Positions 3,801 through 60,689 of a stretch of DNA of 64,000 nt are shown one piece after another; the stretch's first letter is position 1; every line of letters begins with the position of its first letter. This DNA is from Okamejei kenojei. Its lineage: Eukaryota. The translations under genes were made by a program, and so were the position numbers. Location of the stretch: assembly GCA_035221665.1 (NCBI GenBank), contig CM069143.1, positions 42,036,001-42,100,000 on the forward strand. The letters are read 5' to 3'. The notes below the pieces were generated by a model. That model searched no databases and was not told the origin of the DNA. It saw only the letters and a program-made list of their open reading frames with translations.

Positions 3801-5964
3801 TATTAGATAGTCAGTCAGCACACAGTTGGTGGGCTAAAGCACCTGATTATGTCTTGTACAACTGATTCTATAAACCTAATATATATTCATATGATATACA
3901 AGCTGTTTCCTGAACACAAAACAATGTAGGAAATGAGGGCAATATGTAGACTAAACTCTATTGATGCTCAGAGTCTTTGCAGCCACCATCTATATGTCCA
4001 ATCCAGGAAATTGGACTTTATACATTCTTTGGTGTTGTGTTCCATGTTGTATAATGTAAACTGTTTGCTGAAGAACAGTATGGAGTCGACACAGGCAAAT
4101 CTAATACTAACTTGAAAATGTAAAGAGACAATATGTATATGACTACCGAATATGTATCTTCACATCTAGTAAGTGAATTCACATGGACAGTTAAATGTTG
4201 AATACATAGCCAAAAATGTGAACTCCAGAAGAATAGACTGCTGTCTAACTTAGCAATATGGATTTTACGTAGGAATTGCTGTTCACTTAGAATTATACAT
4301 TGTCAATCCAGACTATAAATACAAGTTTTGTGTATGGTTTGGGTAATAGCACTTATACATTAAAAAAAATTAAACAATACAGGAACAGTTAATTTAATGT
4401 TTATTCAATGTAGTACTTAATGGACTTCCAACACATGATTTGAATTCTGATTCTATATTTAGAGAGTAGGTGAAGTGTTGACAACAGGCACTCCACACAC
4501 TATTAAAGTGTTCACATGCCAGTCTAAGTTAGTATATAGGCTTTCTACCAATGGCTGCTTGTGTACAGTAAGGCTCAGAGTTATTGACTACTCAGCCTGT
4601 GACAAATTCACCAGCTAGGTTCTGTAAATGTACAATATTAATATAACATCTATGTCTGCAGTCTGGTAACTGCACATTATATGTGAAGGTACATTAACTT
4701 TCACGGATAGTAAATCATAAATGTAGTACATGATTAAAAACTATTCACATAACAATTTTTTAATTTATTTTTTGTATTTGAAATAAAGTACCTGAATAAA
4801 AACATGAACTTATATATAAAAATATTCTTACATATATGAAATATTGCAAATTTAAAATCAGTTAGTAAAATAACACAACCATCCTGTACAAGAACTCATT
4901 AAACCTTTATGAAACTCATTATTATTTTAGTGATATGAAGGAGCCACAATCTGATTGGTGCTTGATTCAAGGTCCTTCAGAGAATTAGATTTAGCCAATG
5001 ACATCAGAGTTTAAAACAAAAGCTCTCCACATGACTGTGTGAGCACTTTGTCTACAGGAAACATAATACTCCAATGAAGATTCATTGTGTCACCCTCAAC
5101 ATACTATATTTTAAGACAATCAGTCATCTGTCAACGTATCTAAAGATTCATGAAATTGGACGCAAGGCCTCTTGTTCAGGCAATCTAGACTGCAGGCACC
5201 ATAACCTTTTTGCTCTATGAAAGCTGTTACAAACAAAACTACATTGAAAAACTAATGGCACACTTGCCTCAATGTATTTATTCTTTAGAAAATAAAAGTG
5301 GCAGATAAATATTAAAATAAGATATGGCGTTTCATTGGAAACAACGCAGAAGGAAATTAACCACAAATAGTAATCCTTTAAGATTATGGGAAGAATTTGG
5401 TAATTAAAAATGCCATTCACATTTCCATGAACTGAAATGGGAGTGAGATAAGCTTTCAGAATAAGATATTCTTTTTATCACAATGTTTTTATTCTTACAT
5501 TTAAAAAGTGCCTTTAGCTCAGATTATTCAGGACCCACTTTGATACTGCTTGTAACAGGACCATCATCTGCCTAATCCTTTTACATAGTTTGTATAGCCT
5601 AATGCTTTCTATCCTACTCCACTGCACTTTTCACAAATCCATTTAACATATCAATTGACACAACATTTCTTGAATCATTTCTGACCAATGCATATAACTC
5701 CCATAACTGTATAATCTGACATGTTTAGATCAGGAGAAAAACTCATGCTGAACAAATCCTTCTAATCTTAGAAAAATGCCCTGTGATGCTATTTGAGGTA
5801 GTGCGAACAGTGGTTTGCTCACATTGTTTTGTAGAATTCCGGGCAATATTAATGTAGCCTATATCCTGTTTGTACAATACTTTTCTCCCACTCAAACTTG
5901 TTGGTTTACCATTTCAGGTAAATTAAATTTACATGCATACCTGCACACATATGCAAACTTATAC

Positions 5965-7087
5965 AAACTTAAAGCATACAGCATTAGGGGTTCAGTATTA
6001 ATGTGGATAGAGAACTGGCTGGCAAACAGGAAGCAAAGAGTAGGAGTAAACGGGTCCTTTTCACAATGGCAGGCAGTGACTAGTGGGGTACCGCAGGGCT
6101 CAGTGCTGGGACCCCAGCTATTTACAATATTTATTAATGATCTGGATGAGGGAATTAAAGGCAATATATCCAAGTTTGCGGATGACACTAAGCTGGGGGG
6201 CAGTGTTAGCTGTGAGGAGGATGCTAGGAGACCGCAAGGTGACTTGGATAGGCTGGGTGAGTGGGCAAATGTTTGGCAGATGCAGTATAATGTGGATAAA
6301 TGTGAGGTTATCCACTTTGGTGGCAAAAACAGGAAAGCAGACTATTATTTAAATGGTGGCCGATTAGGAAAAGGGGAGATGCAGTGAGACCTGGGTGTCA
6401 TGGTACACCAGTCATTGAAAGTAGGCATGCAGGTGCAGCAGGCAGTGAAAAAAGCGAATGGTATGTTAGCTTTCATAGCAAAAGGATTTGAGTATAGGAG
6501 CAGGGAGGTTCTACTTCAGTTGTACAGGGTCTTGGTGAGACCACACCTGGAGTATTGCGTACAGTTTTGGTCTCCAAATCTGAGGAAGGACATTATTGCC
6601 ATGGAGGGAGTGCAGAGAAGGTTCACCAGACTGATTCCTGGGATGTCAGGACTGTCTTATGAAGAAAGACTGGATAGACTTGGTTTATACTCTCTAGAAT
6701 TTAGGAGATTGAGAGGGGATCATATAGAAACTTACAAAATTCAGGAAGATTGTTCCCAATGTTGGGGAAGTCCAGGACAAGGGATCACAGCTTAAGGATA
6801 AGGGGGAAATCCTTTAAGACCGAGATGAGAAAGACTTTTTTCACACAGAGAGTGGTGAGTCTCTGGAACTCACTGCCACAGAGGGTAGTTGAGGCCAGTT
6901 CATTGGCTATATTTAAGAGGGAGTTAGATGTGGCCCTTGTGGCTAAGGGGATCAGAGGGTATAGAGAGAAGGCAGGTACGGGATACTGAGTTGGATGATC
7001 AGCCATGATCATATTGTATGGCGGTGCAGGCTCGAAGGGCCGAATGGCCTACTCCTGCACCTAATTTCTATGTTTCTATGTTTCTAT
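5965..7087 (+). mobile_element. 5'-truncated CR1-clade LINE (HER1-like), 3' half of ORF2 RT plus 3' UTR
   Basis: WIENWLANRKQRV, TSGVPQGSVLGPQLFTIFINDL, SKFADDTKL, LVRPHLEYCVQFWSP; one in-frame stop and a small deletion; ends in (TTTCTATG)n. Confidence 0.95.
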
Positions 7088-14307: not shown

Positions 14308-15231
14308 TTGCAAAGCAATATTTTCGCCGGGCTTGATGAAACTTTGCTGTCCCGAGCCGAAGCCCTGGCAGCCGTGGATATTGTATCGCAGAAAAACCAC
14401 CCCTTCAAGCCAGATGTCACCTACCATACAATGAGCAGCGTGTCCTGCACTCCGACCTCCGCTTCTGTACATCTACCCCACCCGTCGGTCCTGACTACAC
14501 ACCCGCACCACCACCACCATCATCACCACCAGGCGGCCCAGGGCCTGGAAAGTGATCTCCTGGACCACCTGAACTCCGGCCTATCCCTGAGCGGGCTGAC
14601 GGGACCTGAGGTGGGATCCACGCCATCACATCCACACGCACACATGCCTGGCATGAACCACATGTCACATCACCCACATCACCATCATCAGCACATTAAC
14701 ATTTCCCATTCACACGCTCTGTCGGCCCACATCGGCCTGGGAGGTAACGAGGGCGAAGCAGATCCAAGGGAGCTCGAGTCCTTCGCAGAGAGATTCAAGC
14801 AGAGGAGGATCAAACTTGGAGTGACACAAGCCGACGTTGGGTCAGCCTTGGCCAACCTGAAGATCCCAGGTGTGGGTTGTTTAAGTCAAAGCACTATCTG
14901 TAGGTTTGAATCCTTGACTCTGTCGCATAATAACATGATTGCGCTCAAGCCCATTCTGGAGGCCTGGCTAGATGAAGCCGAGAGGGCTCAAAGGGAGAAA
15001 ATGACCAAACCCGAGCTCTTTAACGGAGGGGACAGGAAGCGTAAACGCACTTCTATCGCTGCGCCGGAAAAACGGTCCCTAGAAGCTTATTTCGCCGTTC
15101 AACCTCGTCCTTCGTCCGAGAAGATCGCAGCAATCGCAGAGAAATTGGACCTGAAAAAGAATGTGGTCAGAGTGTGGTTTTGCAATCAGAGACAGAAACA
15201 AAAAAGAATGAAATTTTCCGCCACACATTAA
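14308..15231 (+). CDS. pou4f4: POU class IV homeobox TF, coding exon 2 (POU-specific domain and homeodomain); total protein 347 aa; most like pou4f4/Brn3d
   Basis: LQSNIFAGLDETLLSRAEALAAVDIV; poly-His tracts; POU-specific domain PRELESFAERFKQRRIKLGVTQADVG...SQSTICRFESLTLSHNNM; homeodomain RKRTSIAAPEKRSLEAYF...VVRVWFCNQRQKQKRMKF. Family membership is certain. The paralog call rests on remembered diagnostic residues (RELESF, GVGCLSQ, LEAWL.EAERAQREKM). Confidence 0.9.
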   Translation: MQSNIFAGLDETLLSRAEALAAVDIVSQKNHPFKPDVTYHTMSSVSCTPTSASVHLPHPSVLTTHPHHHHHHHHQAAQGLESDLLDHLNSGLSLSGLTGPEVGSTPSHPHAHMPGMNHMSHHPHHHHQHINISHSHALSAHIGLGGNEGEADPRELESFAERFKQRRIKLGVTQADVGSALANLKIPGVGCLSQSTICRFESLTLSHNNMIALKPILEAWLDEAERAQREKMTKPELFNGGDRKRKRTSIAAPEKRSLEAYFAVQPRPSSEKIAAIAEKLDLKKNVVRVWFCNQRQKQKRMKFSATH

Positions 15232-26960: not shown

Positions 26961-28021
26961 CAAAAAAATGAATGCTGGAAATGACCAGCAGGCCAAGCAG
27001 CATCCATGGGGAGAACAAATCTAAGTTAATATTACGCCAACATTTTCAGAGTTAGCAAAGGCATTTCAGGCTGAATGGTTTCTACTAGTGTTAAACAGTT
27101 GAAACTTCTAACAGGTTCCAGTCAGTAAAGTTAAAGGAGCACAGTATCAGCTAACTTCCTTCCACAGTGGGTTTAATTTTGTTTCTTCCCACTCTGATAT
27201 AACTTAAGGGATTCACCAAACAAATGCAACTAAGCCATCAGATTTTTCTGGTTTTGCATAATTTATCCATTTTGGGTAAGCAGTGGAATTAGTCCATGCC
27301 TGGCATAGAGTGAATGGTGCACTGGGAGACTGAATTCAGGTATTTAAGTTTTCATAAACATCATTTGAAGAGAAGTTCCATCTTCAGGGTTACAGGTTTA
27401 CATGATGCAAAATTAATGACATGCTTTTAAGCAAATGAAGTGATCTAATGCACAGCTCTACTCTGTCAGGATTGTATATTGCTTCTGTCCATTTCAGCTG
27501 AGACATTCCTGACTCAACGAGTTTCTGCAAACTATTCTCTTTTATTTTCAGTTTCACCAGTTTTTGCTCTCTGATGCCAAACATCCATGGCAGAAGTGGC
27601 ATATGAATTAAACTGATGTGTTGTAATTGTGCTTTTAGAGACTGGAAATGCAATGCACATTTCATCAGCAATCCTACAGTACTGGAATCTAGTTCTGGTA
27701 AGTTGGCATGTATGGCAATAATCATTTGAATCCCTATATTGAGCTTGCAATCACGATATCATTGATGTAGAATAGGTATCTGTACATTTTGTCATTGACA
27801 AAAAATAAACTAAGCTATTAAAAAGACCTATAATTTTGAAAATCATGTGGGGGAAAGAACTTTGTTTTTGCAAATTTGACACTCTCTAGCCTCATATTCC
27901 CTTTTTCCTATCCACACAATTGTTTTTAGAACGTAATCTTCTATAAGATGAGACTTCTTAGGAATACAAAAATCCTGATGCCGCTGCACTACCAATGTGT
28001 TTCCATTCTGTAATCAATGAA

Positions 28022-28622
28022 TAAGAGCAGGGAGGTTCTACTGCAGTTGTACAGGATCTTGGTGAGGCCACACCTAGAGTATTGCGTACAGTTTGGTCTC
28101 CTAATCTGAGGAAAGACATTCTTGCCATAGAGAGAGTACAGAGAAGGTTCACCAGACTGATTCCTGGGATGGCAGGACTTTCATATGAAGAAACACTGGT
28201 ACTCGCTAGAATTTAGAAGATTGAGGGGGGATCTTATAGAGACTTACAAAATTCTTAAGGGGTTGGACAGGCTAGATGCAGGAAGATTGTTCCCGATATT
28301 GGGGAAGTCCAGAGCAAGGGGTCACAGTTTAAGGTTAAGGAGGAAGTCTTTTAGGGCCGAGATGAGAAAATCATTTTTCACACAGAGTGGTGAATCTGTG
28401 GAATTTTCTGCCACAGAAGGTAGTTGAGGACAGTTCATTGGCTATATTTAAGAGGGAGTTAATTGTGGCCCTTGTGGCTAAAGGGATCAGGGGGTATGGA
28501 GAGAAGGCAGATACAGGATGCTGAGGGATGATCAGCCATGATCATATTGAATGGCGGTGCAGGCTCGAAGGGCCGAATGGCCTACTCCTGCACCTAATTT
28601 CTATGTTTCTATGTTTCTATGT
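28022..28622 (+). mobile_element. 5'-truncated CR1 (HER1-like) LINE 3' end
   Basis: Closely similar to 6497-7087 (YSLEFRRLRGDLIETYKILKG); (TTTCTATG)n tail. Confidence 0.93.
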
Positions 28623-31224: not shown

Positions 31225-32072
31225 AATGAATAGTGAAAGGCTTGGATAGATTGGATGTGGAGAGGATGTTTCCACTAGTGGGAGTGTCTAGGACTAGAGG
31301 TCAGAATTAAAGGAAGGAGATGAGGAGAAATCTCTTTAGTCAGATGAATTTGTGGAATACCCACAGAAGGCTGTGGAGGCCAAGTCAATGGATATTTTTA
31401 AAGCAGAGATAGATATATTCTTGGGTACACAAAAAGCTGGAGAAACTCAGCGGGTGCAGCAGCATCTAAGGAGCGAAGGAGATAGGCGACGTTTCGGGTC
31501 GAGACCCTTCTTCAGACTGGTCAGGGATCAGGGAAACGAGAGATATAGACGGTGATGTGGAGGGATAAGGAACAATGAATGAAAGATATGCAAAAAAGTA
31601 TCGATGATAAAGGGAACAAGCCATTGTAAGCTGTTTGTGGTGTGAAAATGAGAAGCTGGTGCGACTGGGGTGGGGGAGGAAGATAGAGATAGAGGGAATG
31701 CCAGGGCCCGAGGGCTGAGGGAGAGGTGGGAAGGGGAGGGAAGGGGAGGAGACAGCAAGGGTTAACAGAATTGAGAAAATTCAATGTTCAAGCCCAAAGG
31801 ATGCAGACTCCCCAAGCGGAATATGAGGTGCTGTTCCTCCAGCTTGCGGTGTTGCTCACTCTGGCCGTGGAGAAGGCCCAGGACCGAGAGGTCGGATGCG
31901 GTCCACTACAAACCCACTGGGGCCCTTGATATATTCTTGATTAGTACAGGTGTCAGGGGTCATGGGCAGGAGAATAGGGTTATGCGGAAGAGATAGATCA
32001 TCCGTGATTAAAGACGGAGTAGACGTTGGGCGGAATGGCCTAATTCTGCTCCTATCACGTATGACCTTATGA
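31225..32072 (+). mobile_element. CR1 LINE 3' end split by a Penelope insertion
   Basis: ggcttggatagattggatgtggagaggatgtttccactagtgggag...gatatattcttg | gatatattcttgattagtacaggtgtcaggggt...aatggcctaattctgctcct. Confidence 0.8.
31424..31927 (-). mobile_element. Penelope-like element fragment: GIY-YIG endonuclease C-terminus, 3' UTR and hammerhead motif; 12-bp TSD
   Basis: The minus strand gives SDLSVLGLLHGQSEQHRKLEEQHLIFRLGSLHPLGLNIEFSQFC* and CTGAAGAAGGGTCTCGACCCGAAACGTC. TSD GATATATTCTTG at 31412-31423 and 31928-31939. Confidence 0.85.
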
Positions 32073-34924: not shown

Positions 34925-35152
34925 GTAAAACACAAACTGCTGTAGTAACTCAGTGGGTCAGGCAGCAGCATCTGTGGAGGGAATGGACAGGCAATATTTC
35001 GGGTCAGAATTCTTTGTCAGTCTGAAGAAAGGTCCCGAGCCCAAATGTCGCCCATCCATTGCCTACACAGATGCTGCTGCCTGACCTGCTGAGTTACTCC
35101 AGCACTTTTATCTTTTGCTTAAGATTCCAGCATCTGTGGGTCCTTGTATCTC
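34925..35152. mobile_element. Palindromic (head-to-head) Penelope-derived repeat
   Basis: Arms gtaactcagtgggtcaggcagcagcatctgtg and cacagatgctgctgcctgacctgctgagttac around a centre tcagtctgaagaaagg. Confidence 0.75.
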
Positions 35153-35528
35153 TAGCAGGATTACTTAGGTAGAATCAGTGGGGAGCATCAGGAAGTTCTT
35201 TTAATTTTAAATATCTGTGTGAATTTTGCCACTAATTTCAAATAGAATCTAAAGCCACTTAATATGTTGTTGTGATTTATTTATGCACAAAGGTGCACAG
35301 AATAGTAAGATTAAACGAGAACTTACCAGTTCGAAGTTTGATCGTTATTTTATGAGGAGTAACGATGAGGGATTACGTGAAGAAGCCCCGCCTGGCGCTG
35401 GAACGGCATACTTCAAAGCAGCGGCATGAAAAACACAGAACATAATAGCCGGAGTAAGATAGTAAGGCTCAACATAGATTTAGAACTACCAGATGATCAT
35501 TTATTTTATGAGGGTCGGGAGTGGAGGG

Positions 35529-35641
35529 CACGTAATCCCTCATCGTTACTCCTCATAAAATAACGATCAAACTTCGAACTGGTAAGTTCTCGTTTAATCT
35601 TACTATTTTACTTCGGAGTCACGTGAGTGACTACGTGAAGA
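35529..35641. repeat. Internal complementary region (ICR) of the DIRS element
   Basis: A 79-bp perfect inverted copy of the left terminus fused at ATT to a 37-bp perfect inverted copy of the right terminus. Confidence 0.92.
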
Positions 35642-35949
35642 GTTTGAAGCTTCTGTGTTTTTCATGTCGTAGAATTTATTCCATACGACAGTCCGGCTCA
35701 TTCAACACAGTAACGAGCGAATAACACATTTTTCCCCAAACATTGCCAAAAGTTATGTGATAAATTATTTCACATTATAAAGAATAAAAGTAATGCCCTT
35801 TCCATTGAAAGGCAAGTTTATCACAAAATATCAATTTTGATGGTATGTATATTTTGATGGTATATTTTGATGGTATGAACAAAGCAACAATTATAGAGAA
35901 CCCAACACTCCGTGTCCAAACCTGACACCATGACTGGTTCCTTTTATTT

Positions 35950-36820
35950 AACATTTAATTTACACCCTCCTGCGGCCTTGCATCTTTGCTCGAGCGGCTC
36001 ATCCTGTGCCATTCCTGTGAATGTATCTACCTCATTAACAGAGTGATTTTCCACATTTCAGTGTCTAGTTCCACTGAGTGTTATTTAATTTCTAACCATC
36101 TAGAATACATTCCTCTAGAACCATCAGTTTTTACTGAAACCTAATGTGGTTATTTGTGTGTAATAAGTAGTGCTATCTCATCACCAGAGACTCTTACCTA
36201 CTTCAACATATTTTATCAATGTTCACACACACACACAACTTAAGGCCGACAGGATATGCTTATAGGTTTACCTTGGTTTCAGCTCTTCTTGGTGTGCTTT
36301 GTTTGGTAAATTCATAAACATATATGATAATGTAATCTGTATCCACATGCAATTATAACGTAATATTTGCAATGTTTGCACTCTTATGTTGATACTAAAG
36401 TCATCAGCATTATTACTTTTAATGTTAACTTTTTTGAATCATTGATAGAATTTAGAGTCCATTGCCTAAGGCAATTCAGGACTATTGATCTCCTGACTTA
36501 TGTATTACAATTTTGAACACATTATATATACATATATATATTTATATTTATATCTACATATATATCCCTTTCCATATCGGGATATTACGAATGCACCCGA
36601 TAACTTCTTGGTTAGTATATTGTCCGTTAATAGGACGATAACACTCTGAGCCCTATTATTGGCTCTATCAATTAGATACTCAGAAAAATGCAATCCACAA
36701 GGAACTCGCATATAACTAATATGACAAAATAACTTTACTGTATACACAGACTTCCAATTTCTTATAACAAAATATTGTTTTTTAAAACTTATTTCTGCAA
36801 ATTGCAGGTATAACACTTTT
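35950..36820 (-). pseudogene. Decayed tyrosine recombinase ORF of the DIRS element
   Basis: Motif remnants in DIRS YR order with many stops and frameshifts; includes track ORF 36505-36816. Confidence 0.55.
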
Positions 36821-36977
36821 TTTATACATAATTATTTTATTGTTATGTTGTTATATTAGTTAAACATTCCTAGACTTCTTTGACCATCAAACTGTTGTAA
36901 TGGTCTGGTCAACCTGCAGATAGTCAAATTCATATTTTCATGTCATGGATGCCTTTGTACAACAATAAATCACTGCA

Positions 36978-37074
36978 GAGTTACACAAAAACTGAAGAAC
37001 CCAGCGGGTGCAGCAGCATCCAAAGAGTGAAGGAGACAGGCGACGCCCCGGGTCGAGACCCCTCCTCAGACTTT
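36978..37074 (-). mobile_element. Short Penelope-derived hammerhead repeat nested in the DIRS element, with clustered T>C changes
   Basis: Aligns to 31426-31518; TSD AATAAAT(C/T)ACTGCA at 36964-36977 and 37075-37088. Confidence 0.85.
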
Positions 37075-38490
37075 AATAAATTACTGCAACTATGAATCAT
37101 CACAAGTGGTTCAACATCACTCAATATTTATGAAAACCATGAAGGATCCGTTTTGGGCCACCAAAATGCCTCTGGCAGTATCCTGCTACATTTTCATCAG
37201 ACACTGTCCTATCAAACAAAAATGAGGAACATAAAAGAACATCTTTCCTCATGTAATTGAAAGAAAAGCATCCATCTTTCCTGTTCTTGGTTTACCCACG
37301 AGAACATTTGAAAGATCGGTGATTTAATCTGTATGTAACCAGATTAATCGTAAGTAATCCATATTAATGACAATGTGTTTTCCTCCCTTAATTTGTTGTC
37401 TCCGATACCATTGTCTCTTCCTTAGAGATATGCCACATCTGTTTACTCAGATAATCCCATGATTATTATTTTACTTATCTTGTGTGTTTTAACATATGCC
37501 ACAGCCGTGGTATTGTTCACCTTGATATGACATGGACACTTCCATAATAGAACAATCGATAATTAATCCATAACTCCTTATACTTCAATAATTAATACAA
37601 ATGTTTGGAGAAATTTCTTAGGACAATCCATTTATGCTCACCTGGTATTATTGTCCGTAGTCCCAACAAGAGACGTATCAATTATTTTTATATGAATAGA
37701 TAATATTCTTATCTTTACCCAAATATTCACAGAAGCTGTCCATCATCTGTAACACTTGCTTCAGTTTGCAACAGCTGCTAAGCTTATAGTTGAAGCAGCT
37801 TGTGAACTTTTTTTTTTTTTTTTCATTACTTTAATAATGATAACATATCATTTGATATTTGCATAAGCCTCTCACAAAGGCATACATATTCTTATAAGCT
37901 TCTGTATTCCTTCTTTTGGAGCTTTATTTACTCCTTTCCTAATGGAGAAACAAAGTATGTCAACAAAACAATGAGACATATTTGTATCATGGAACAATTT
38001 TCCCCCTCTTATGGTGCTGAATTACTCCTAAATTCAGAATAGTAATTTATGAATATTTTATTAATGCCTAAGCATACGCTTTATGTGATGGGTCAGGTCC
38101 TTGCCTGCCAACAGGTTTGTAATTGCAGCACTAATTTGCAGCTGACTCTTTATAACCTTCCAATTTAAATGTGATCAAGATAACCCATGACCATGTCCTC
38201 ATTAGTGCAAGTGCTGATCTTTTTATCAGCACAATTGTTCTTCCAGTATTCTGTTTAACAGCCTTGAACTGGTTTTAATCCTTTAGACAATGTTTTAACT
38301 TGCACAGCTTGACCCATTTTAATTAATTTCAAGCACCTGTAATATTGATTAACAATTTGTTAATAACAACTGTATTTCAATGTTCAAGATGTTTCCATTT
38401 TAATAAAATGTTCTTACACTGTGAAAGTGTATACAAAATGATGTTTTGTATGGTTTATACCATCAAATCTTTACACTGAGGTAATTTTAT

Positions 38491-38493
<3 letters not shown>

Positions 38494-38533
<40 letters not shown>
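38494..38533. repeat. (TA)n microsatellite inside the DIRS body
   Basis: About 20 perfect TA units. Confidence 0.95.
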
Positions 38534-38535
<2 letters not shown>

Positions 38536-40771
38536 GTACCCATTCTTTATTGGAATTACTTTTGGATGCAAACCTAAAATCAATTTTTAAGGTTTTCTTA
38601 TGCAGGTGAACCAATCCTTTCTTAGTTATATTAAATTAATGATCATGATACACCTGTAATCCCCCACAATTGGAGATTTAATGAACTTATTTTATAACAA
38701 GTTGTTTGCACCTCTTCAACGTACTTCAAGCCTTCTTTTTCCAATTATATGGGTTTGGATAAGGTTATGTTGGATTATACCATATTTTCTGCCTTTGTTT
38801 TGATCCATTATCAAATCTTTCATTGGATCATAGTTTTTCCCCCAAAGTTTAAAGATCAGTAGTCTGTTCTTTTGTAATCAATATTTTTGATTTATCATAA
38901 GGCAGGTTTTATTCCATAATAATCAGGAGTTTAATATAACCTGATTTGTAATGATCTGCAAATCTAGAGTGCAGATTTGGTAAATTAATATTATATATTT
39001 CTTCCCATTGAGCTCCACAAACTGATGGCAATTTATTTTATTTTAAATGTATTGGTTATTTGCACAATATTTTATTTGTTTTCCATTGAATGGAAATGCC
39101 ATGCACATGCACCAGTTTGAAATACTTTTAAAATCGTATTTCATTATATCTCATCTAATTGAGACATGGATATCATAACCGGATTCACCGTTGATATCTT
39201 TATAAACTTAAAAGTTTTATCATATTCTGCTGTTTCACCATAACAGCTTTGGTGAGGCCAATTAATTTTTTTTTTCCATATTTACTTTTCATGGCCTCAC
39301 TCATACATTCAGGTATCAAACCTAGTACACTTCTATATACATTTTGTGCTGAAGTGTACTTAAATAAAACATAAAAAGTTTTATTATTATTCTGCTGTTT
39401 TAATCATAACAGCTTTAGTGAGAGACCAATTAATTTTGGTTTCCGTGGTTATTTTCCTTGGCCTCACTTCTTATTCAGGTGTTGTACTTACACCTGTATA
39501 TATATAGTGTATATATATTACTGGTGCTGTGGTGGGTACTTCATGACCAGCCACCACTATCGGTGCATTTTTAGGGTCAGTTTTCCATTTTGCTGCCCTT
39601 GTTACTCCTGAGTTTTTCCTCAAGGAGACTACCTTCAAATATATCTGAGGTAGATAGTCCCACCATATTTCATCATATATATTAATATGTGAACCCCCTT
39701 TAGGGTAGGTTAGGGAATGTTTTTGGGCCATTTAACCCTTTTTGGCTTGAATTCTTTATTTACTTTATTTTTATTTTTTGGAATCTTTTTTCCATTATTT
39801 TTCCAAGCCATTAAACTTTTTTAGTCTGAAGACCTTTTATTAAATTTTTTAAATTATGGCCTTTCTGACTTTATAAAATTCCCCCCCCCCCCCCCTGCCA
39901 AAAGTTTGTGGAGCGACTAAAAAATCTTTCTAACGTAATTGTAACGGTCACCAGTATCGGAACCGGCTCCGTAATTAATCTCCCGTCCCGATCGCTGGGT
40001 ATTCCCCCGGGACGTTCTTTTTTAAACTCCGTTGTTTTATACAGAGTATTTTTGTTCTATTTTAACTTTTATTTATTTTTTGTTTTTAAATTCATTTTAA
40101 CACCTGGTTCAATGCACCAGGCACGGAGTTTCCAGACCCTAAAAGTTTTTCAACTGCACTTACCTGCCGGTTCCGTACCTACCGCTTTCGAGGAGCTAGC
40201 CTCTGCAGCTCTTGCTTCTGCCGTCAGCGTCGACGTAATGCCGTTCCAGCGCCAGGCGGGGCTTCTTCACGTAGTCACTCACGTGACTCCGAAGTAAAAT
40301 TGGCATTGAAGTGTTACTCTATTTTTATTCCAAATGCTTAGAGTATATACATCAGGTTTAAATAAAGACAAACAGTTTGCACAAAGAAATTAGACATAGT
40401 AGAATCCCAACAGCGGCATAAAGACCATGCCTGCCCCACCATTTCAGCAAGGAACAACAAAGACTTGATTTGTCCATCTACGCTTCATGCTGCCCCGAGA
40501 AGGCCACCAGCATAATCAAGGATCAGTCTCATTAGTCACTTCCTCTTATCCCCTCTCCTATCAATCAAGAGGTACAGATGTTTGAAAACGCATTCAGGGA
40601 CAGTTTCTTCCCAGATGTTATCAGCAAATGAATAGCCCTCTCATCAGCTTGAGTGCACTCCTGGTCTCCCATTTACCTCATTGGAGACCTTTAACCTATC
40701 TTAAATCGGACTTTATTGGACTTCAATGTTATATCTAACACTAAATGTTGTACCCTTTATCCTTTATCTCC

Positions 40772-41740
40772 CCAAGTGCCAGCATAACAACCTGGCTCTC
40801 AATATCAGTAAAACCAATGAACTGATTGGGGACTTTGGAAGCGGAAGGATGAGGACTCACAATCCTGATTATATCAATGAGACAATAGTGGAGAGATTCA
40901 AAAACTTCAAATTCCTGGGCGTGCATTTTCCAAAGATCTTTCCTGGACCCAGCACACTGATGCAATTAGAAAATAAAGCACATCAACACCACTACTTCCT
41001 GAGAAGGTTAAGGAAATTCAGTATGTCAAAGAGAATTCACCTGAACTTCTACAGGTGTACAGTAGAGAGCATACTGGCTGGCTGTATCGTGGCCTGGTTT
41101 GGCAACTTGAACATCCAGGAGCGGAAAAGACTGCAAAAAATTGTGAACACTGCCCAGTCCATCATCAGCTCTGACCTCCCCACCATCGAACCGATTTATC
41201 AAAATCGCTGCCTCAAAAAGGCAGCCAGCATCATCAGAGGCCCACACTATCCTGGCCACACACTAATTTCGCCACTGTCATCGGGAAGAAAGTACAGAAG
41301 TCTGAAAACTGTAACGTCCAGGTTCAGGTACAGCTTCTTCCCTACAGCCATCAGGCTATTAAACACTACAGCCTCAAATAAGCTGATATGTACGCACTGA
41401 ACTTTTTTTCTCTCTCGTTTATCATATTGTATACAGTGTACTACTGTATGTTTACATATTCTATTGTGCTTCAGCAATTAAAAATTTCATTGTTCTATCT
41501 GGGACATATGACAATAAAACACGAGGGTACACAAAAAGCTGGAGAAACTCAGCGGGTGCAGCAGCATCTAAGGAGCGAAGGAGATAGGCGACATTTCGGG
41601 TCGAGACCCTTCTTCACTCCTTCGCTCCTTAGATGCTGCTGCACCCGCTGAGTTTCTCCAGCTTTTTGTGTACCCTCGATTCTCCAGCATCTGCAGTTCC
41701 TTCTTTAAAAAAATGACAATAAAACACTCTTGACTCTTGC
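40772..41740 (+). mobile_element. 5'-truncated Rex1/Babar-like LINE (ORF2 C-terminus and 3' UTR)
   Basis: HNNLALNISKTNELIGDF, FKFLG, YFLRRLRKF, NFYRCTVESIL, RCLKKA, RFRYSFFPTAIRLLN. Confidence 0.9.
41523..41712. mobile_element. Young fold-back Penelope-derived insert with 15-bp TSD
   Basis: 62-bp perfect inverted arms at 41522-41583 and 41617-41678; TSD ATGACAATAAAACAC at 41508-41522 and 41713-41727. Confidence 0.88.
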
Positions 41741-45999: not shown

Positions 46000-48900
46000 C
46001 TAACTATTTTACATAACGTCGAGTTGGCGGTATTGACAATCGCCCACTTCTCGTGCGAGTCGTATTTCCAACACGTTCTGTGTTGTATTTCTGTTGTGTG
46101 AGTGTGGCTTGGCACGCTGCGAGCAGGTTCCCCCACCACATTACCTTGTGATGCGGCCTGTGATTGTTCTCTTGAGTCTGGGAGACTTGCTCCGTCTGGG
46201 AGAGGGGCTCCTCCGTCTGGGAGAGTTTTCGTGCTCTTTTGCTGCGTGTTGCCAGGGCATGGCTCAGCTGCTTCGTGCGTAGGTCATATGTCTTTCCTGT
46301 TTCTGCGGTAATCAGTAACACTCGGTGTCGAAATGGAGCAGCTCCGAGGGACCAGGTTTTCTCGTGCAATCTGGCCATGTTGCCACTCGGTTGGTTTGGC
46401 ACCAAACCACACCTGTTGTTGTCGCTCCAGGCACGGCAGCGGCTCGACGCTTGCCTTCTTATTGAAGTGTGCTGCCTGTTTTTCTTGCCGGACGGCTAGT
46501 TGCGGTTTGCACACAGCGCTCCACCTGCCCATTGCTCTGTGGATATATGGGACTTGCAGTGACATGGCCAAATTCCCATTGATCCTTGAACTTGCGAAAC
46601 TCAACACAGTCAAATTGTCTCACGTTGTCAGTCATCACCAAGTCAGGAATGCCATTCTGGGCAAACGTGCCCTTCATCTCTCGTATCACCGAATGTGACA
46701 TCATGTCTGGCAGTTGCGCTATTTCTGGGTACTTGTAGTAATAGTTCACTACAAGTAAATGGTCAACTCCATCCAGATGGAAAATATCTGCCCCGACTTT
46801 AGATCAAGGTCTGCTGGGGATGAAGTGCGGTTGTAGCGGCTCGCTTGCTTGTGCTTTCCTTGTCGCCTGACATATCGAGCAAGTTCCCACTGTGTCACCG
46901 ATCTGTGCATTCATTCCTGGCCACACAAATAAATTGCGGGCTCGTTGTTTCAGTTTCACTAAAACGTGTTCAGCCTCTGCAGGCGCCTGCTTTGGGGGAC
47001 TACGATTCGGTTTTCACTTAAGACTAAACCATCTACTTCAACCAGCTCGTCATGGTATGCATGAAATGGAATCAAGTCTGAGGGTAGACCACGCCTGTTA
47101 CTAGGCCAACCCTTTCTTATGTACTCGCACAGCAGTGTTAGGGTTTGATCTTTTTCTGTTTCAGCTTTGAACTGCGCAAGGCGCTCGTCTGACATGTGTA
47201 GTATGGCCTACTGCATGTATCACGGTTGGCAGTGTGATGTGCTCTTCCGCAAGTGTGTTTGCACTGGGCAGCTGGCTCAGGGCATCAGGGACAAACGTTT
47301 CACGTCCCGGCTTCCACCGTATCTCCAGGTCATACCGTAGCAGGTGCATTCGCAAGTGCTGGAATCTGGGGCTTGTGATCAGTAAGGATTTCTTTGCGCT
47401 GACCAACAATGAAGTCATGGAACTTTCTGCATGCGTACAATATGGAGCACAGCTCCTTCTCTATAGTCGCATAGTTGCGCTCGGCCAGGTTCACACGTCG
47501 TGATGCGTAGGCAACAGGTCTCTCGTCTTGCATTAGGACCGCTCCAAATCCACTGTTGGAAGCGTCTGTTGCAATTGAAACGGGCGCGTTCACATCGTAC
47601 AATTTGAGTACGGGTGGCGATGTGAGAAGACATTTCAGCTTGTCTACTGCATGTCTGTGCTTCTGCTCAAAATGCCACGCTACACCCTTTTCTGTTAGCT
47701 GTCTAAGTGGGGCGGTGATCTCCGAAAGGTTCGGAATAATCGTGGCCATTTATGTCACCATCCCCAAGAACATTTGCACTTCAGCCTTGTTTGTCGGGCA
47801 TGGCATTTGCCGCACACTGCTGACACGAGATGTGCTTGGTGAAACGCCTGCTTGTGAGATGTCGTGTCCCACATGTTCAATCTCGTTTGAGCGCATTACC
47901 GATTTTCTAGGATTGAGCTTTAGGCCGGACTCTTTCACAGGCGCGAGTAGGGCTTTCACCCTTGTGTCATGCTGGGCTGCCATCTCTCCCCAAACGAGAA
48001 TGTCGTCAATGACTATCTCCACCCCTTCTAAATCACCAAACTCTTCCTGCATCGCCCGCTGCCAAATCTCACTTGCGGATGAGATTCCAAATGGAAGCAC
48101 GAGGTATCGGTATCTCCCAAAGGGAGTATTAAATGTGGTCAGGCGCAAGCTGGTGTCGCTCACTGGGAACTGCCAGTACCCACTTGTAGCGTCAAATTTC
48201 GAGAACCATTTTGCCTTTGGCATGCGGGCTGCAATGTTCTCGATCGTCGGCATCAGAAATGCTCCCTGCGAATGGCCGCATTGAGGTCACGCGGGTCAAG
48301 GCATATGCGGACTTCGCCATTAGGCTTGCTAACAACAGTCACTGAATTCACCCAATCCGTCGGTTCGCTCACGGGCTTTATGACTCCCAAGCTTTCCATG
48401 CGCTCTAATTCGGCTTTGACCTTATCCCTGAGCTTATAGGGGATAGTGCGGGGAGGGGGTGGTTTGCTTAGGTTGCACGTTCTCTTGCAGTGCTATGTTG
48501 TACTCATGTTTTTATAACCTTCCCAGCCCTTGGAAAATCTTGCAGTTTTCCTCACTGATTATCACAGTGTTTGATGAGCTCGCCTCATTTTGCACAAGAT
48601 GCCCTTACTTCTCACACGTCAGTCTCCCAAATATGGGTTTCACATCCCACTTCACTATTTGAAACACAACACTATATTCCTTCTTACCTAATTTAACGTT
48701 CCCCTTTGCCTGTCCCTGAGGCTTCATTGTATGTCCAGAGTATTACCTTCGTGTTCATTAAGGCAAGACCAGCCTTTCTGAACAAGTTCTCGGCAGGATG
48801 TCAACTTGAGCTCCAGAGTCAAGTTTCAACTCAATGCCCACATTGTTAATGCTGCACAGCTGTCCCCATTCACACGTCAAATCAATCACGGTGTCAATCA

Positions 48901-49844
48901 CGGTGTCAATCACGGCGTCAATCACGGTGTCAATCACGGTGTCAATCACGGCGTCAATGTAGAATACATCAAAGTCGTCGTTCACTGGCTCAGGCAGCGG
49001 TGAAGTGGACATCTGGAACTCAATGTCCCGGACGTCACGGCTCCTGTCCCCGGCCTTTTGTCTGATTAGCCCATCATGTTGTCGGGAACGTGGTTGGCTG
49101 TTGGGTGGTCTATTTACCGGGCAGTCGGGGGATCTGGAAAAATGTCCGATTTCTCCGCAGGTGTGACATCTCATGTACTGAGCGGAGCAGTAGTTGGTTT
49201 TATGCACGTGGGTGCATCATTACCATAATTACGGATTTCTGTGTGTGGTTGTCTGGGTCGCGAATCCCTGTCTCGGCCCCATGGCCGACTGGCACTGTCC
49301 CGTTTCAAGTAATCAACTGTCTCTTCAGTGGCGATGGCAGTTGGGTCGATCTGTTTCGCGTGCTCGGTTGATGCTTTGGCGATCATACGCATGTCACTGC
49401 GTTAAGTCATCGCATTGGAGAAGTTTCTCCTCGAGCGGCTGGCTGGTGATGCCACAGAATATTCTGTCTTGAAGCAACGAGTATGCAGACTGTCAAATCC
49501 GCAATCATTAGCTTAAGACTTCAGTGCAGTCAGGTAGCTGGAGAAGGTCTCCCCTCGCCGCTGATTATGTGTATTAAAGATGTATCTTGTGACAGTTAAG
49601 TTCTTTTTTAGTTCACAGTACTTCTGGAACTTCTTCTTCAGCGGTTGTATTTTGTCACATTCCTCCGGGGCGAACTGAAAGGTCTCATAAATCTGCAGAG
49701 CGGCCGGCCCCGCCTCGTGGAGCAATGTTGCACACAGAATCCTATGCTTACTCGTCAGCTCTGTCGCCATCTTGTACAGTCCTTATAATTCTTGGCTAAG
49801 TTCCCTTGCATGGAGAATGGTCCCGGTGGCTTGAGTCCTGCCAT
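46000..49844 (-). pseudogene. Frameshifted gag-pol of the Gypsy element
   Basis: MAGLKPPGPF start; zinc knuckle CHTCGEIGHFSRSPDC; PR LDSGAQ; RT FDATSGYWQ, LPFGISSA, IDDILV; RNase H TDAS, YASR, YATIEKE; IN GIPDLVMTDN, YPQSNGQVER. Confidence 0.92.
48882..48958. repeat. 12-bp tandem repeat x6.4 (TCAATCACGGYG)
   Basis: Read directly; encodes (IDTV/IDAV)n on the - strand between gag and PR. Confidence 0.95.
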
Positions 49845-57458: not shown

Positions 57459-59075
57459 ATATTCCTATTCTTCGCTCAAGGCTTGACAGTTTCAAATAAT
57501 GAGAAGTCAACAATAAACCACATAAAAACACCATTGGTATAATGAAATGTAATGGCACAGCTGAATATAAACCAAGGTCGTAATCACTCATTTATGCAAT
57601 TGCTTTATTTCAGGTGAAATACAACTTTTACGATTTTTGTAACAACTGACCCAAACATCAACCACCCACCCCTCCTATTTCCAGACAGAAAGCTGCCCTA
57701 TCGAGCTAATTACATTTATGGATATAAGCCACTTCCAAAGGTTCCAGTGCAACCTACACTGAAATTAAAAGAAAACAAAGACCAACAGAATTTGTACTAT
57801 TAGACCCAGCAGACTCCTAGAACAAACACCAATTTACAAATTAGTTAATAAACTGGCAAGGAGAGTTGGCGAAACTGTACTTTCAACTTAATCTCATTAT
57901 CACATTTATCAGTCATTGTCCCGTCAGACAACTCCCTTCAATAAAACAGATTATCCACTGTACCTCTCTCAGATATTGATCAGATTGTGAACATTCTGGA
58001 GGTGAGGTTTTGAAGTATGAAGAGTGTAGGAATGCTATTGATTCAAAAAAGAGATCTAAGGATCCCATTTGAAGACCCATGCGAATACACATGCTGATCT
58101 CGGTGATTGAATGTTCCATCAGCTAGATTTCTGCTTGTGTTCCTAGAACCTACAGGGGATTTTGACAAAACTAACACAGGCAGAATTTAATTGATTATCC
58201 AGGTTTACTTCATCGCTTGAGCGGGGTGGAAATATGGCTTTAAATAATTCAGAATGCAAACAGACAAAGAAGAAATCAATTCAGGTAATTCAGGTATTGA
58301 GTACTGATAAAGGTAGAGGCAAGGTGGAACCCACATATGCCCAAGGCTGTGGTGCTTCTGTGAATTTAAAGAATTTGAAACTGGCAACAAAACTGAAATT
58401 GAACTCTATGTTCAAAATCTCGCCCAATACAACAATCTTTCAAAATCGTGTTCAGTGTTGATTTCTGTGTTAAAGCACACAGATGTAGAACACTGCCAAA
58501 GTTAAAGAGAATAAAGAATTACCATCTATAGTTGTTATTGTATTGCCTGGATTTTAAAAGCCTCTTGGTGGCAAAAAGATGGAAAGAGAGAGAAGAGAAA
58601 AATAATTATATTGTTTTGAAGTTCGAGAGGTTGAATTAATGCATTGATTTTAAGGAAGAGGGTAAGAAGGTGCCAATCAATGTTTAAGCAGTTGAAGATA
58701 AACATGTAGAAAGTAAAGTGCAACATATCTTTGTGATTTTATTAAAGATAGTTCCTTGTGATTATATATGATAACTAGACTAAGAGGGACCCGTTGGGTC
58801 CCAGCATCACACAAGAGGGCTGGTCCCCCAACGCAATATTCCACCTCTCCACCAATTCCAGTGGTGGCCAGTGGAGTGGGGGGGGGGGGGGCTTTCTGGA
58901 GCACTAGTATGGGTGTTGTGGGCTGAAGGGACTGGTTTCCAGAGGGCTAGTATGGACATTGTGATTCAAATGGATTCTTGGGCTGGCGACTCAGTCACTG
59001 AAGCCTGTTGTGCTGGCAGCTCACTCACTCATGGCTGGTGGGCTGGCAGTTGACTCACGGCTATTCCTTGAAATT

Positions 59076-59195
59076 CCATTTCAAGCAGGGTACAAGGCTA
59101 CCAAATTCAAGTGAAGTTTCTTACCACTTCAAGCAGGTTGCAAGGCCACCAAATTCAAGTGCAGTTTCTTACCATTTCAGCAGGGTGCAAGGTCC
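59076..59195. repeat. 48-bp tandem repeat x2.5 inside the Helitron
   Basis: Unit ccatttcaagcagggtacaaggctaccaaattcaagtgaagtttctta. Confidence 0.85.
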
Positions 59196-59524
59196 CTAAA
59201 GGCAGCAAGTTGTGACCTCTCCCTCCTGCATCTTGCAGAGACTGAGCCATGCCCACACTTCTGGGTTTATAGTCCCTCCCCCCTCCCAACAAAAGGGGGT
59301 GGCCTTCATGGCATGATTGACAGGAGAGAGAATCTCAAGATTTTTAAAACACTAATAACTCTTTTATTTTTCATCGATGGGAAATATTCTTGGCACCTGA
59401 TGAACGGAGGGGGACTGAGTAAGATGGCTAAAAATCACAGCCGTACGTGGTAGCGTTTTTTCTAAAATCAATATTAAGCGCAAACAGGAAGTGATCAAGA
59501 TTAGACTCTTAATTATATAGAAGA

Positions 59525-59735
59525 CAAGGCAACTTTAATTAGGCAAGGCAACTTTAATTAGGCAAGGCAACTTTCCAAACCAAAGACAACACAGCTTTAG
59601 CATTTCCAAACCAAAGGCAACACAGCTTTAGCATTTCCAAACCAAAGGCAACACAGCTTTAGCATTTCCAAACCAAAGGCAACACAGCTTTAGCATTTCC
59701 AAACCAAAGGCAACACAGCTTTAGCATTTCCAAAC
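59525..59735. repeat. Adjacent 19-bp (x2.6) and 31-bp (x5.3) minisatellites
   Basis: CAAGGCAACTTTAATTAGG at 59525-59574; TTTCCAAACCAAAGGCAACACAGCTTTAGCA at 59572-59735. Confidence 0.95.
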
Positions 59736-60689
59736 TATATTTTCAAACCACATTAAGGGCACTGACAGGTCAATAAAACCACTCACAGTTTAGTAGACAT
59801 GTGTTTAGTGTTATTCACAGCTCAGATTGAGATACATGACCCTCTCGCTCTCCCATCTTGCAGAGACTGACTGAGGCACTCAACACCTCCGGGTTTTATA
59901 GTCCCTCCGGGTTTTATAGTCCCGCCTTCAGAAGAGAGAATCTCAACATTTTTTAAACACTAATAACTAATCTTTTATTTTTCGCCGATGGGAAAAATCC
60001 TCTGGTCCTGCACAGCGGATGGGGACTCTGAGTAAGATGGCCAAAAATCACAGCCATAAGTGGCAGTGTATTTTCTAAAATCAATATACAGAACAACAGG
60101 AAGTGGTCAAGATCAGACTTTTAGTAATGTAGATATATGTGTAACCTTTCTGACATGCATTGATCTTTTATATGAAGAGTAAAATGTAATTTATTGTGAG
60201 TAGTTAAAATATTAAAGTTATATGGGTTGCTGGAACCGCATGGGCTGATCAAAGTCTATTGACAATTGCAGCAGTTATTTTTAATGCAACATAGAAAGAA
60301 TTTGGAATGATTCTGGAGCTTAAATGATAGATTTTTTAGTAAAATCAAAAACTGTAGGTGGGGAATGGGAGAAGAAATGGTAAATGCAATGAAAGAAATG
60401 GGCAACAAGAAATAATAGGGCCCTTGTGTATTTTGGGCTGAGGTCTTGCTTCTGCTCTCAGTACAGCATAGGTTTTCACATAGGCATTGAATAGACTCTT
60501 AATGTAATGTTGTACATTTGTTTCTAAATGTTGATATTTTCCAAAAAGAATTATGTAACTGTTTAACCACTCATCTAAGAATGTTAGAAAACAGTATGTT
60601 GGAAGTACATCTCCAAAAAACTATGCTTGCAGTTCCCTTTATATTACAGGCTACTTGTGGATCTGCTTTGTGAGTGCAAAATAAATTCA

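Follow-up and report, generated by a model that had tools for sequence, protein, structure and literature searches.

The DNA analysed here, 64,000 nucleotides of contig CM069143.1 of Okamejei kenojei (positions 42,036,001 to 42,100,000 of assembly GCA_035221665.1; hereafter the window), carries a DIRS1-like element whose ends are perfect and whose interior is in ruins (Table 1). The ends are younger than the decay of the coding interior, and the element most likely moved in trans after its own genes had decayed. Its sense strand is the minus strand, with position 40300 as its 5' end. DIRS1 elements are recognised by complementary inverted terminal repeats (ITRs), two internal complementary regions (ICRs) near the 3' end, NTT ends and a 3-bp junction (PMC3266345). 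Here the repeats are formed by three perfect inverted matches of 79 nt (35301-35379 with 35529-35607), 37 nt (35605-35641 with 40264-40300) and 36 nt (35374-35409 with 40238-40273), of which the last is the conserved ITR and the other two supply the pair of ICRs (37 and 79 bp). Together they cover 285 distinct sites, including 22 CpGs, with 0 mismatches, which puts the 95% upper bound on change in the ends at 1.05% per site. The original prediction had described these matches as perfect with their CpGs kept, and the ICR as spelling the exact circle junction; both descriptions hold. The end-to-end junction, AAT, lies inside the ICR, where the two halves overlap by 3 nt, and the junction 19-mer occurs once in the 64-kb window, within the ICR. 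The ATT at either end matches this junction, and there is no other target duplication, as expected of the type. The core common to ITRs and ICRs measures 10 nt at the left and 6 nt at the right, where at least 10 nt is the published requirement, and the divergent 27-nt part of the right ITR is identical to the left ITR at 13 of 27 positions. With only 149 nt between them, the 79-bp arms fold into a hairpin of very high stability (z=-17.6). The spacer between right ICR and right ITR offers the right ICR a second, imperfect pairing partner and may act as a folding switch. An Ngaro- or PAT-like arrangement (A1-internal-B1-A2-B2 split direct repeats) was ruled out because the terminal repeats are inverted. 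Overall, the end anatomy is that of a textbook DIRS1 element.

Between these ends the sequence changes character. The interior (35700-39899) has 32.6% GC, below all of the 505 other 4.2-kb windows (505/505; minimum 35.4%), and its observed/expected CpG ratio (o/e) is 0.32 in 35761-39900, compared with 1.38 in the adjoining 5' leader (39901-40237) and 0.47 in the whole window. The step in CpG density near 39900 is sharp, with 0 CpGs in 39601-39900 and 9 in 39901-40000, and a second one lies near 35750. A run of at least 14 C (G in sense) at 39882-39895 marks the boundary of the CpG-rich leader and the CpG-poor interior. We infer that the leader carries a promoter or packaging signal. The intact long open reading frames (ORFs) of autonomous DIRS1 elements are absent: between the repeats, stop-free stretches reach at most 108 aa in sense and 123 aa in antisense. 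An interior without long ORFs, AT-rich, with microsatellites and a nested insert had been noted before, and the 108-aa sense maximum, the GC content and the repeat at 36982-37072 bear this out; homopolymers occur in addition. A 142-aa plus-strand open frame at 39869-40297 lacks a Pfam match and is taken as chance.

The relative ages of ends and interior can be read from two clocks within the element. The first is the tandem duplication in the gag-position region, whose copies differ by 17 substitutions plus gaps over 109 columns, i.e., 17/218 copy-sites compared with 0/285 in the ends (p=5e-7). With 5 A/G and 4 C/T differences, this duplication does not bear out A>G or G>A hypermutation across the whole element. 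The second clock is a nested Penelope-like fragment, in which, A>G changes left aside, there are 5 events over 93 nt (p=8e-4 against 0/285 in the ends) or, counting substitutions alone, changes at 3/75 sites (p=0.009). Its reference is a young copy of the same repeat within the window, and the reference base is shared by nearly all other copies at two of the three substitution sites, although part of this count may stem from differences between subfamilies or from insertion errors. The interior thus holds more mutation than the ends, and the ends are younger than the coding decay; this age is relative and does not convert to years. Had a fossil simply aged where it lies, its ends would be expected to be decayed as well. 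As both clocks are older than the ends, a move in trans after decay is the most likely explanation, as had been proposed from the sequence originally, and, measured in mutations, its last cycle took place recently (less than about 1% per site).

An alternative is an ancient insertion that never moved again. Its repeats would have stayed alike through gene conversion at the locus or because the host selects for them, for instance in a regulatory role some 20 kb away from a POU-homeobox gene. Conversion is plausible between the closely spaced 79-bp arms of the hairpin, and a POU-homeodomain exon does lie at 14308-15231. However, the 37- and 36-bp pairs are separated by 4.6-4.8 kb, and identity ends exactly at the limits set by the DIRS model, the 3-nt overlap included. 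Conversion would not spare the CpGs of the unrepeated leader, and it has homogenised neither a nearby 14-bp duplication nor the tandem duplication. We consider such a static origin improbable.

Table 1. Features of the DIRS1-like element and their positions in the window.
Feature	Position	Strand	Remarks
Whole DIRS1-like element	35301..40300	-	5000 bp; sense reads ATT at start and end
Left (5') terminus	40264..40300	-	sense 1-37; perfect complement of left ICR
Left ITR, conserved part, 36 bp	40238..40273	-	sense 28-63
5' leader, unrepeated, CpG-rich	39901..40237	-	21 CpG, o/e 1.38
Decayed tandem duplication, gag-position region	39210..39480		39210-39314 vs 39374-39480; 92/109 aligned bases identical (84%)
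(AT)20 microsatellite	38494..38534		upstream of reverse transcriptase ghost
Reverse transcriptase ghost	38171..38401	-	YLDH at 38182 in place of YL/IDD motif
RNase H ghost	37491..37685	-	IIDTS at 37685; NNTTAVAYV at 37517
Methyltransferase ghost, three frames	37131..37345	-	YVPH at 37233; PSW at 37145
Target-site-duplication-like repeat, right copy	37075..37088		14 bp, 1 mismatch to left copy
Nested Penelope-like repeat fragment	36982..37072	-	same sense as element; 7/15 (or 8/16) A changed to G
Target-site-duplication-like repeat, left copy	36964..36977		14 bp, 1 mismatch to right copy
Tyrosine recombinase ghost, three frames	35968..36488	-	HSVN at 36045 (or HSVE at 36080) in place of HSTR
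Left ICR, 37 bp	35605..35641	-	sense 4660-4696
Right ICR, 79 bp	35529..35607	-	sense 4694-4772; 3-nt overlap with left ICR at 35605-35607
Spacer	35458..35533		degenerate direct copy of right terminus, between right ICR and right ITR
Right ITR, conserved part, 36 bp	35374..35409	-	sense 4892-4927
Right (3') terminus	35301..35379	-	matched by right ICR; divergent ITR 27 nt + right extension ~46 nt

What the interior probably once encoded can be made out by eye in the minus-strand frames, where ghosts of a reverse transcriptase (RT), an RNase H (RH), a methyltransferase (MT) and a tyrosine recombinase (YR) are collinear in DIRS order; the catalytic Arg is missing from the recombinase ghost. The remaining methyltransferase and recombinase words presumably correspond to DIRS segments, a likeness that we use as a lead and not as a test. 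In sense coordinates the motifs begin at 1918 (TLKY), 2119 (YLDH), 2616 (IIDTS), 2784 (NNTTAVAYV), 3068 (YVPH), 3156 (PSW) and 4256 (HSVN), followed by the left ICR at 4660. Motif positions for 28 DIRS elements are tabulated in Supplement S3 of PMC3266345, and the spacings compare as follows: 201 nt from TLKY to YLDH (published 192-195), 497 nt from YLDH to IIDTS (about 490), 452 nt from IIDTS to YVPH (about 550), 88 nt from YVPH to PSW (78), about 995 nt from PSW to HSVN once the insert is removed (about 950-995) and 404 nt from HSVN to the left ICR (about 170-440). The shortfall between IIDTS and YVPH points to some 100 nt lost from between the RNase H and methyltransferase ghosts, so that the element has suffered lesions of both kinds, deletions and insertions. 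In a partly post hoc test, a chain of eight motifs scored 107, a value reached by 0/1000 shuffles and 0/68 control windows (plus strand 81); an earlier run of the test gave 0/177, and a three-motif chain 0/1000. Ghost recombinase and RT motifs had also been claimed previously; they are visible by eye, but no library search detected them. From these remains a DIRS origin of the interior appears likely, if not formally shown. Two motif aspartates, at 37517 and 37345 (minus), read as asparagine through G>A at the first codon position; both changes are compatible with ordinary decay or with deaminase editing and are anecdotal without a reference.

The nested insert bears a mutational signature of its own. 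The repeat family from which it comes is represented several times in the window, with palindromic copies at 41522-41678 (62-nt perfect arms) and 34934-35108 (87-nt arms, 78%). That the family is young follows from the 99% identity of its copies at 31423 and 41525. The 14-bp match flanking the insert, equalled by 4/3000 random pairs, looks like a target duplication; its mismatch is A/G, with G on the 3' copy, and can be read in either direction. On the sense strand of the element, 7 of the insert's 15 adenines have become G (8/16 in three of four equally good alignments), compared with T>C at 0/28 (p=2e-4 or lower) and other changes at 4/76 (p=2e-4), there being 3-4 other substitutions in all. 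Nine other alignments to the same reference, many of them of distant subfamilies, show A>G at 2/108 aligned adenines, or 2/104 substitutions. ADAR editing avoids a 5' G neighbour, and in the insert 6 of 8 adenines without a 5' G are changed, as opposed to 1 of 5 with one, although these numbers are small. An A>G cluster confined to one strand is described as a hallmark of ADAR editing in the part of PMC2873906 drawn on here. The cluster fits adenosine-to-inosine (A-to-I) editing fixed by reverse transcription; as it is fixed in DNA, the edited RNA would have been reverse transcribed, pointing to an RNA stage. Such editing could have acted on the RNA of the Penelope-like repeat, prior to its insertion, or later on that of the DIRS element, the polarity being alike in both cases. 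Against the latter, the insert lacks an inverted partner inside the element with which to form double-stranded RNA and, judging from partial accounts in the literature, minimal hammerhead ribozymes may cut poorly as monomers.

These details also bear on whether the locus is natural at all. Mis-assembly, a collapsed consensus or a planted sequence could have joined good ends to an unrelated or degraded interior; the interior is confirmed by no database, and the span of exactly 5000 bp on the coordinates 35301 to 40300 is conspicuously round, probably by coincidence. Such an artefact is nevertheless very improbable given the natural fine structure of the interior: its ghosts are collinear and spaced as in DIRS elements, its insert comes from a repeat family that also occurs elsewhere in the window and is flanked by what looks like a target duplication, and the A>G cluster within that insert is confined to one strand.

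The element is a real DIRS1-type element and works like a non-autonomous retrotransposon. The explanation we lean towards is that of a non-autonomous DIRS1-like lineage, descended from an autonomous ancestor, in which the reading frames decayed in place and the cis signals were kept over many cycles. The CpG-rich 5' leader would drive a near-full-length RNA, which the reverse transcriptase of an autonomous relative would copy, with ITR and ICR templating the missing ends and so resetting the three repeat pairs to identity in each cycle. The relative's tyrosine recombinase would then insert the element at an ATT, leaving ATT at both ends. Selection would act on the ends alone, while the interior would drift AT-rich, shed CpGs and gain microsatellites, deletions and inserts over successive genomic residences. 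Experiments on Dictyostelium DIRS-1 lend plausibility to these steps: in the portion of PMC7192593 drawn on here, the element cannot do without its ICR, its reverse transcriptase works in trans, cDNA that is supplied can be integrated by endogenous proteins, and mobility persists when a marker cassette is carried. The same portion reports mostly linear DIRS-1 cDNA and an inverse polymerase chain reaction (PCR) that failed to yield the junction. The original prediction treated a circular cDNA as established, which goes too far; with linear cDNA and a junction that was not amplified in DIRS-1, the circle stays a model, and a negative junction PCR would refute nothing.

Re-homogenisation of the ends, as suggested at the outset, accounts for the identity of the repeats through ICR copying, but not for the survival of their CpGs. 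Templating does not explain why CpGs persist, because any change arising in the ICR would be passed on to the end, and because the leader, with 21 CpGs, is unrepeated. Their survival needs selection, a lack of methylation or recent acquisition. The further suggestion that a full-length interior reflects a length constraint or a capacity for cargo finds no support from a single copy in an element that has deletions and insertions.

Several observations weigh against a long-lived non-autonomous lineage. Just one copy is seen, which does not establish the long-lived, still mobilised lineage of the original prediction, the rest of the window matching the element solely via the nested repeat and microsatellites, and an autonomous partner was not found in a scan for the terminus that covered bacterial and archaeal genomes only. 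That scan returned two matches to the terminus 20-mer (L001 2400-2419 and L002 6001-6020), both inside an ordinary small Desulfobacterales gene with no further similarity, i.e., chance. The motif chain test is partly post hoc, because its spacing windows were fixed after the frames had been seen, and the eight-motif result leans on the RNase H word, which was picked after being spotted, although this word is present in the published alignment as far as the part used here extends (PMC2685390 S6). The seven S3 motifs alone are not significant (score 72, reached by 64/1000 shuffles and 35/68 unanchored controls).

Every protein library search of the interior, with frames read through and X placed at stops, was likewise negative. 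Pfam returned 0 families in 6 full frames and, for 21 segments, one match at E 0.27; PHROGs gave a single match at E 0.15 on 9 segments; three word-indexed protein searches yielded 2414 candidates with none at E<=0.01, 4 candidates with none at E<=10, and none; phmmer found 0 matches among 1.84 billion representative proteins; and PDB sequences gave one chance match (E 1.1) in one search and none in a second. A comparison of the interior with the RT of a Gypsy-type element in the window was also negative, but says little since the frame used lacks YLDH. These negatives do not refute a DIRS origin, because the ORF pieces per frame are short and the searches included no DIRS protein as a positive control. 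Finally, the A>G cluster could predate insertion into the element, and the sharp CpG boundary near 39900 fits a chimera equally well.

Under that last alternative, an old DIRS fossil recently obtained fresh ends of about 400 bp each from an active, young family, either because the template was switched inside a particle that both shared or because cDNAs recombined. It would then have moved in trans, once or a few times, with no long-lived lineage behind it. The abrupt CpG changes near 39900 and near 35750 would then be the seams, the 21 CpGs of the unrepeated leader, beyond the reach of ICR copying, would be inherited from the donor, and the single copy within the window would be expected. We judge this origin rather unlikely, though a single copy does not tell it apart from a gradual lineage; both readings imply movement in trans after decay. 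It needs two switches and yet has left a collinear element of near-normal length (5000 bp, against a published mean of 5160 bp; PMC3266345), in which the last recombinase ghost still lies 404 nt before the left ICR, within the published ~170-440. In addition, an unmethylated CpG-rich promoter under selection yields the same CpG profile.

If that lineage is accepted, its nested insert may record an episode of its RNA history. The hammerhead-like core GAAA reads GGGG in the nested copy. The core pattern, which we take to be that of the hammerhead, matches 2 young copies, with 7 matches in all in the window and 1.4 expected. Rfam reported nothing at gathering score and just hairpin look-alikes below it, so the hammerhead is not confirmed, and no Penelope RT or GIY-YIG ORF turned up next to the window copies, although no search was aimed at one. 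A sense-direction Penelope-like fragment with a self-cleaving hammerhead would cut the DIRS transcript; the host would edit that transcript, reverse transcription would fix the edits, and the edited copy alone would keep moving. The result would be a zombie DIRS lineage, long dependent on borrowed enzymes, in which A-to-I editing killed the inserted hammerhead core. We regard this scenario as doubtful. If true, host RNA editing would have rescued one retroelement from another's ribozyme. An insert edited in this way would preserve a datable record of an RNA stage.

Among known systems, the closest are short-ITR DIRS1-like elements, i.e., the molluscan AcaDIRS1/2 and LgDIRS1/3 (PMC3266345), which share the ATT start and end, the AAT junction, ICRs near the 3' end, a length of 4.7-5.8 kb and the order RT-RH-MT then YR. 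Their conserved ITR measures 31-36 bp and the extension 48-49 bp (PMC3266345 Table 3), compared with 36 bp and ~46 here. Unlike them, our element has no intact ORF, its catalytic motifs are altered (YLDH, HSVN), and the core common to all four repeats is 6 nt instead of at least 10. The vertebrate DIRS1 elements in PMC3266345 differ in another respect, with conserved ITRs of 102-148 bp as opposed to 36 bp in this element from a vertebrate host. LARD-like non-autonomous long terminal repeat (LTR) elements are alike in keeping their ends around an interior mutated to non-coding and in being moved by an autonomous partner, as described in the part of PMC8969392 drawn on here. However, they rely on LTR and integrase chemistry and have no ICR.

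TOC1 of Chlamydomonas reinhardtii, at about 5.7 kb and without long ORFs, has split direct repeats instead of ITRs and ICRs. Like the present element, TOC1 (partner TOC3) is non-autonomous and, according to the sections of PMC5613634 and PMC9940879 used here, makes new insertions. Unlike in TOC1, the interior here appears to consist of the collinear remains of genes that were once the element's own. The label "-N" conventionally marks non-autonomous families. Zebrafish DIRS-N1, which appears as a DIRS family in the portion of PMC5400779 drawn on here, is compared by name only. Penelope-like elements, from what the passages used of PMC6155905 and PMC8557442 report, form 5'-truncated insertions and adjacent inverted copies and carry a minimal hammerhead in the repeat; the window copies are palindromic alike, whereas the nested copy has lost the core via A>G.

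Non-autonomous elements of the DIRS order are thus already known, and non-autonomous LTR elements with mutated interiors are routine. In the literature, covered mostly at title and abstract level and with the main DIRS reviews and Repbase outside its scope, we found no ITR/ICR element in which flawless ends enclose a collinear ruin of full length, no such ITR/ICR element in cartilaginous fish, and no case of a retroelement whose nested ribozyme was inactivated by editing, all of which is weak evidence of novelty. To the extent covered by the part of PMC7192593 used here, the DIRS cycle has been tested only in Dictyostelium. If many copies shared the lesions described above, they would amount to a natural deletion-and-mutation scan of DIRS replication, the ~400 bp kept per end would mark the cis needs of the order, and the contrast between ends and interior would support, directly from the genome, the view that the ICR regenerates the ends. 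A single copy would be a curiosity, one late jump of a dead element. Because all searches were negative here, protein-based annotation misses such elements, and vertebrate DIRS activity may be undercounted.

The surroundings of the element are vertebrate-type DNA, as indicated by a POU exon, LINE-type RT fragments, a Gypsy-type element and the overall CpG o/e. The POU exon (plus strand), about 20 kb from the element, combines POU and homeodomain with histidine runs and presumably belongs to class IV POU (Brn-3 type). LINE-type fragments at 5797-7087 and 28021-28620 are 86-99% alike and have an RT match, and a different LINE 3' fragment at 40705-41400 lies 400 bp from the 5' end of the element. 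In a broken Gypsy-type element at ~46000-49400 (minus), pieces of a zinc knuckle, a protease-like domain, RT and RNase H are scattered over different frames; a 12-bp tandem repeat occupies 48882-48958. Further along, a minisatellite cluster (58978-60096; units of 30, 48, 19, 31 and 18 bp) is bracketed by a 69-bp direct repeat at 59415 and 60028.

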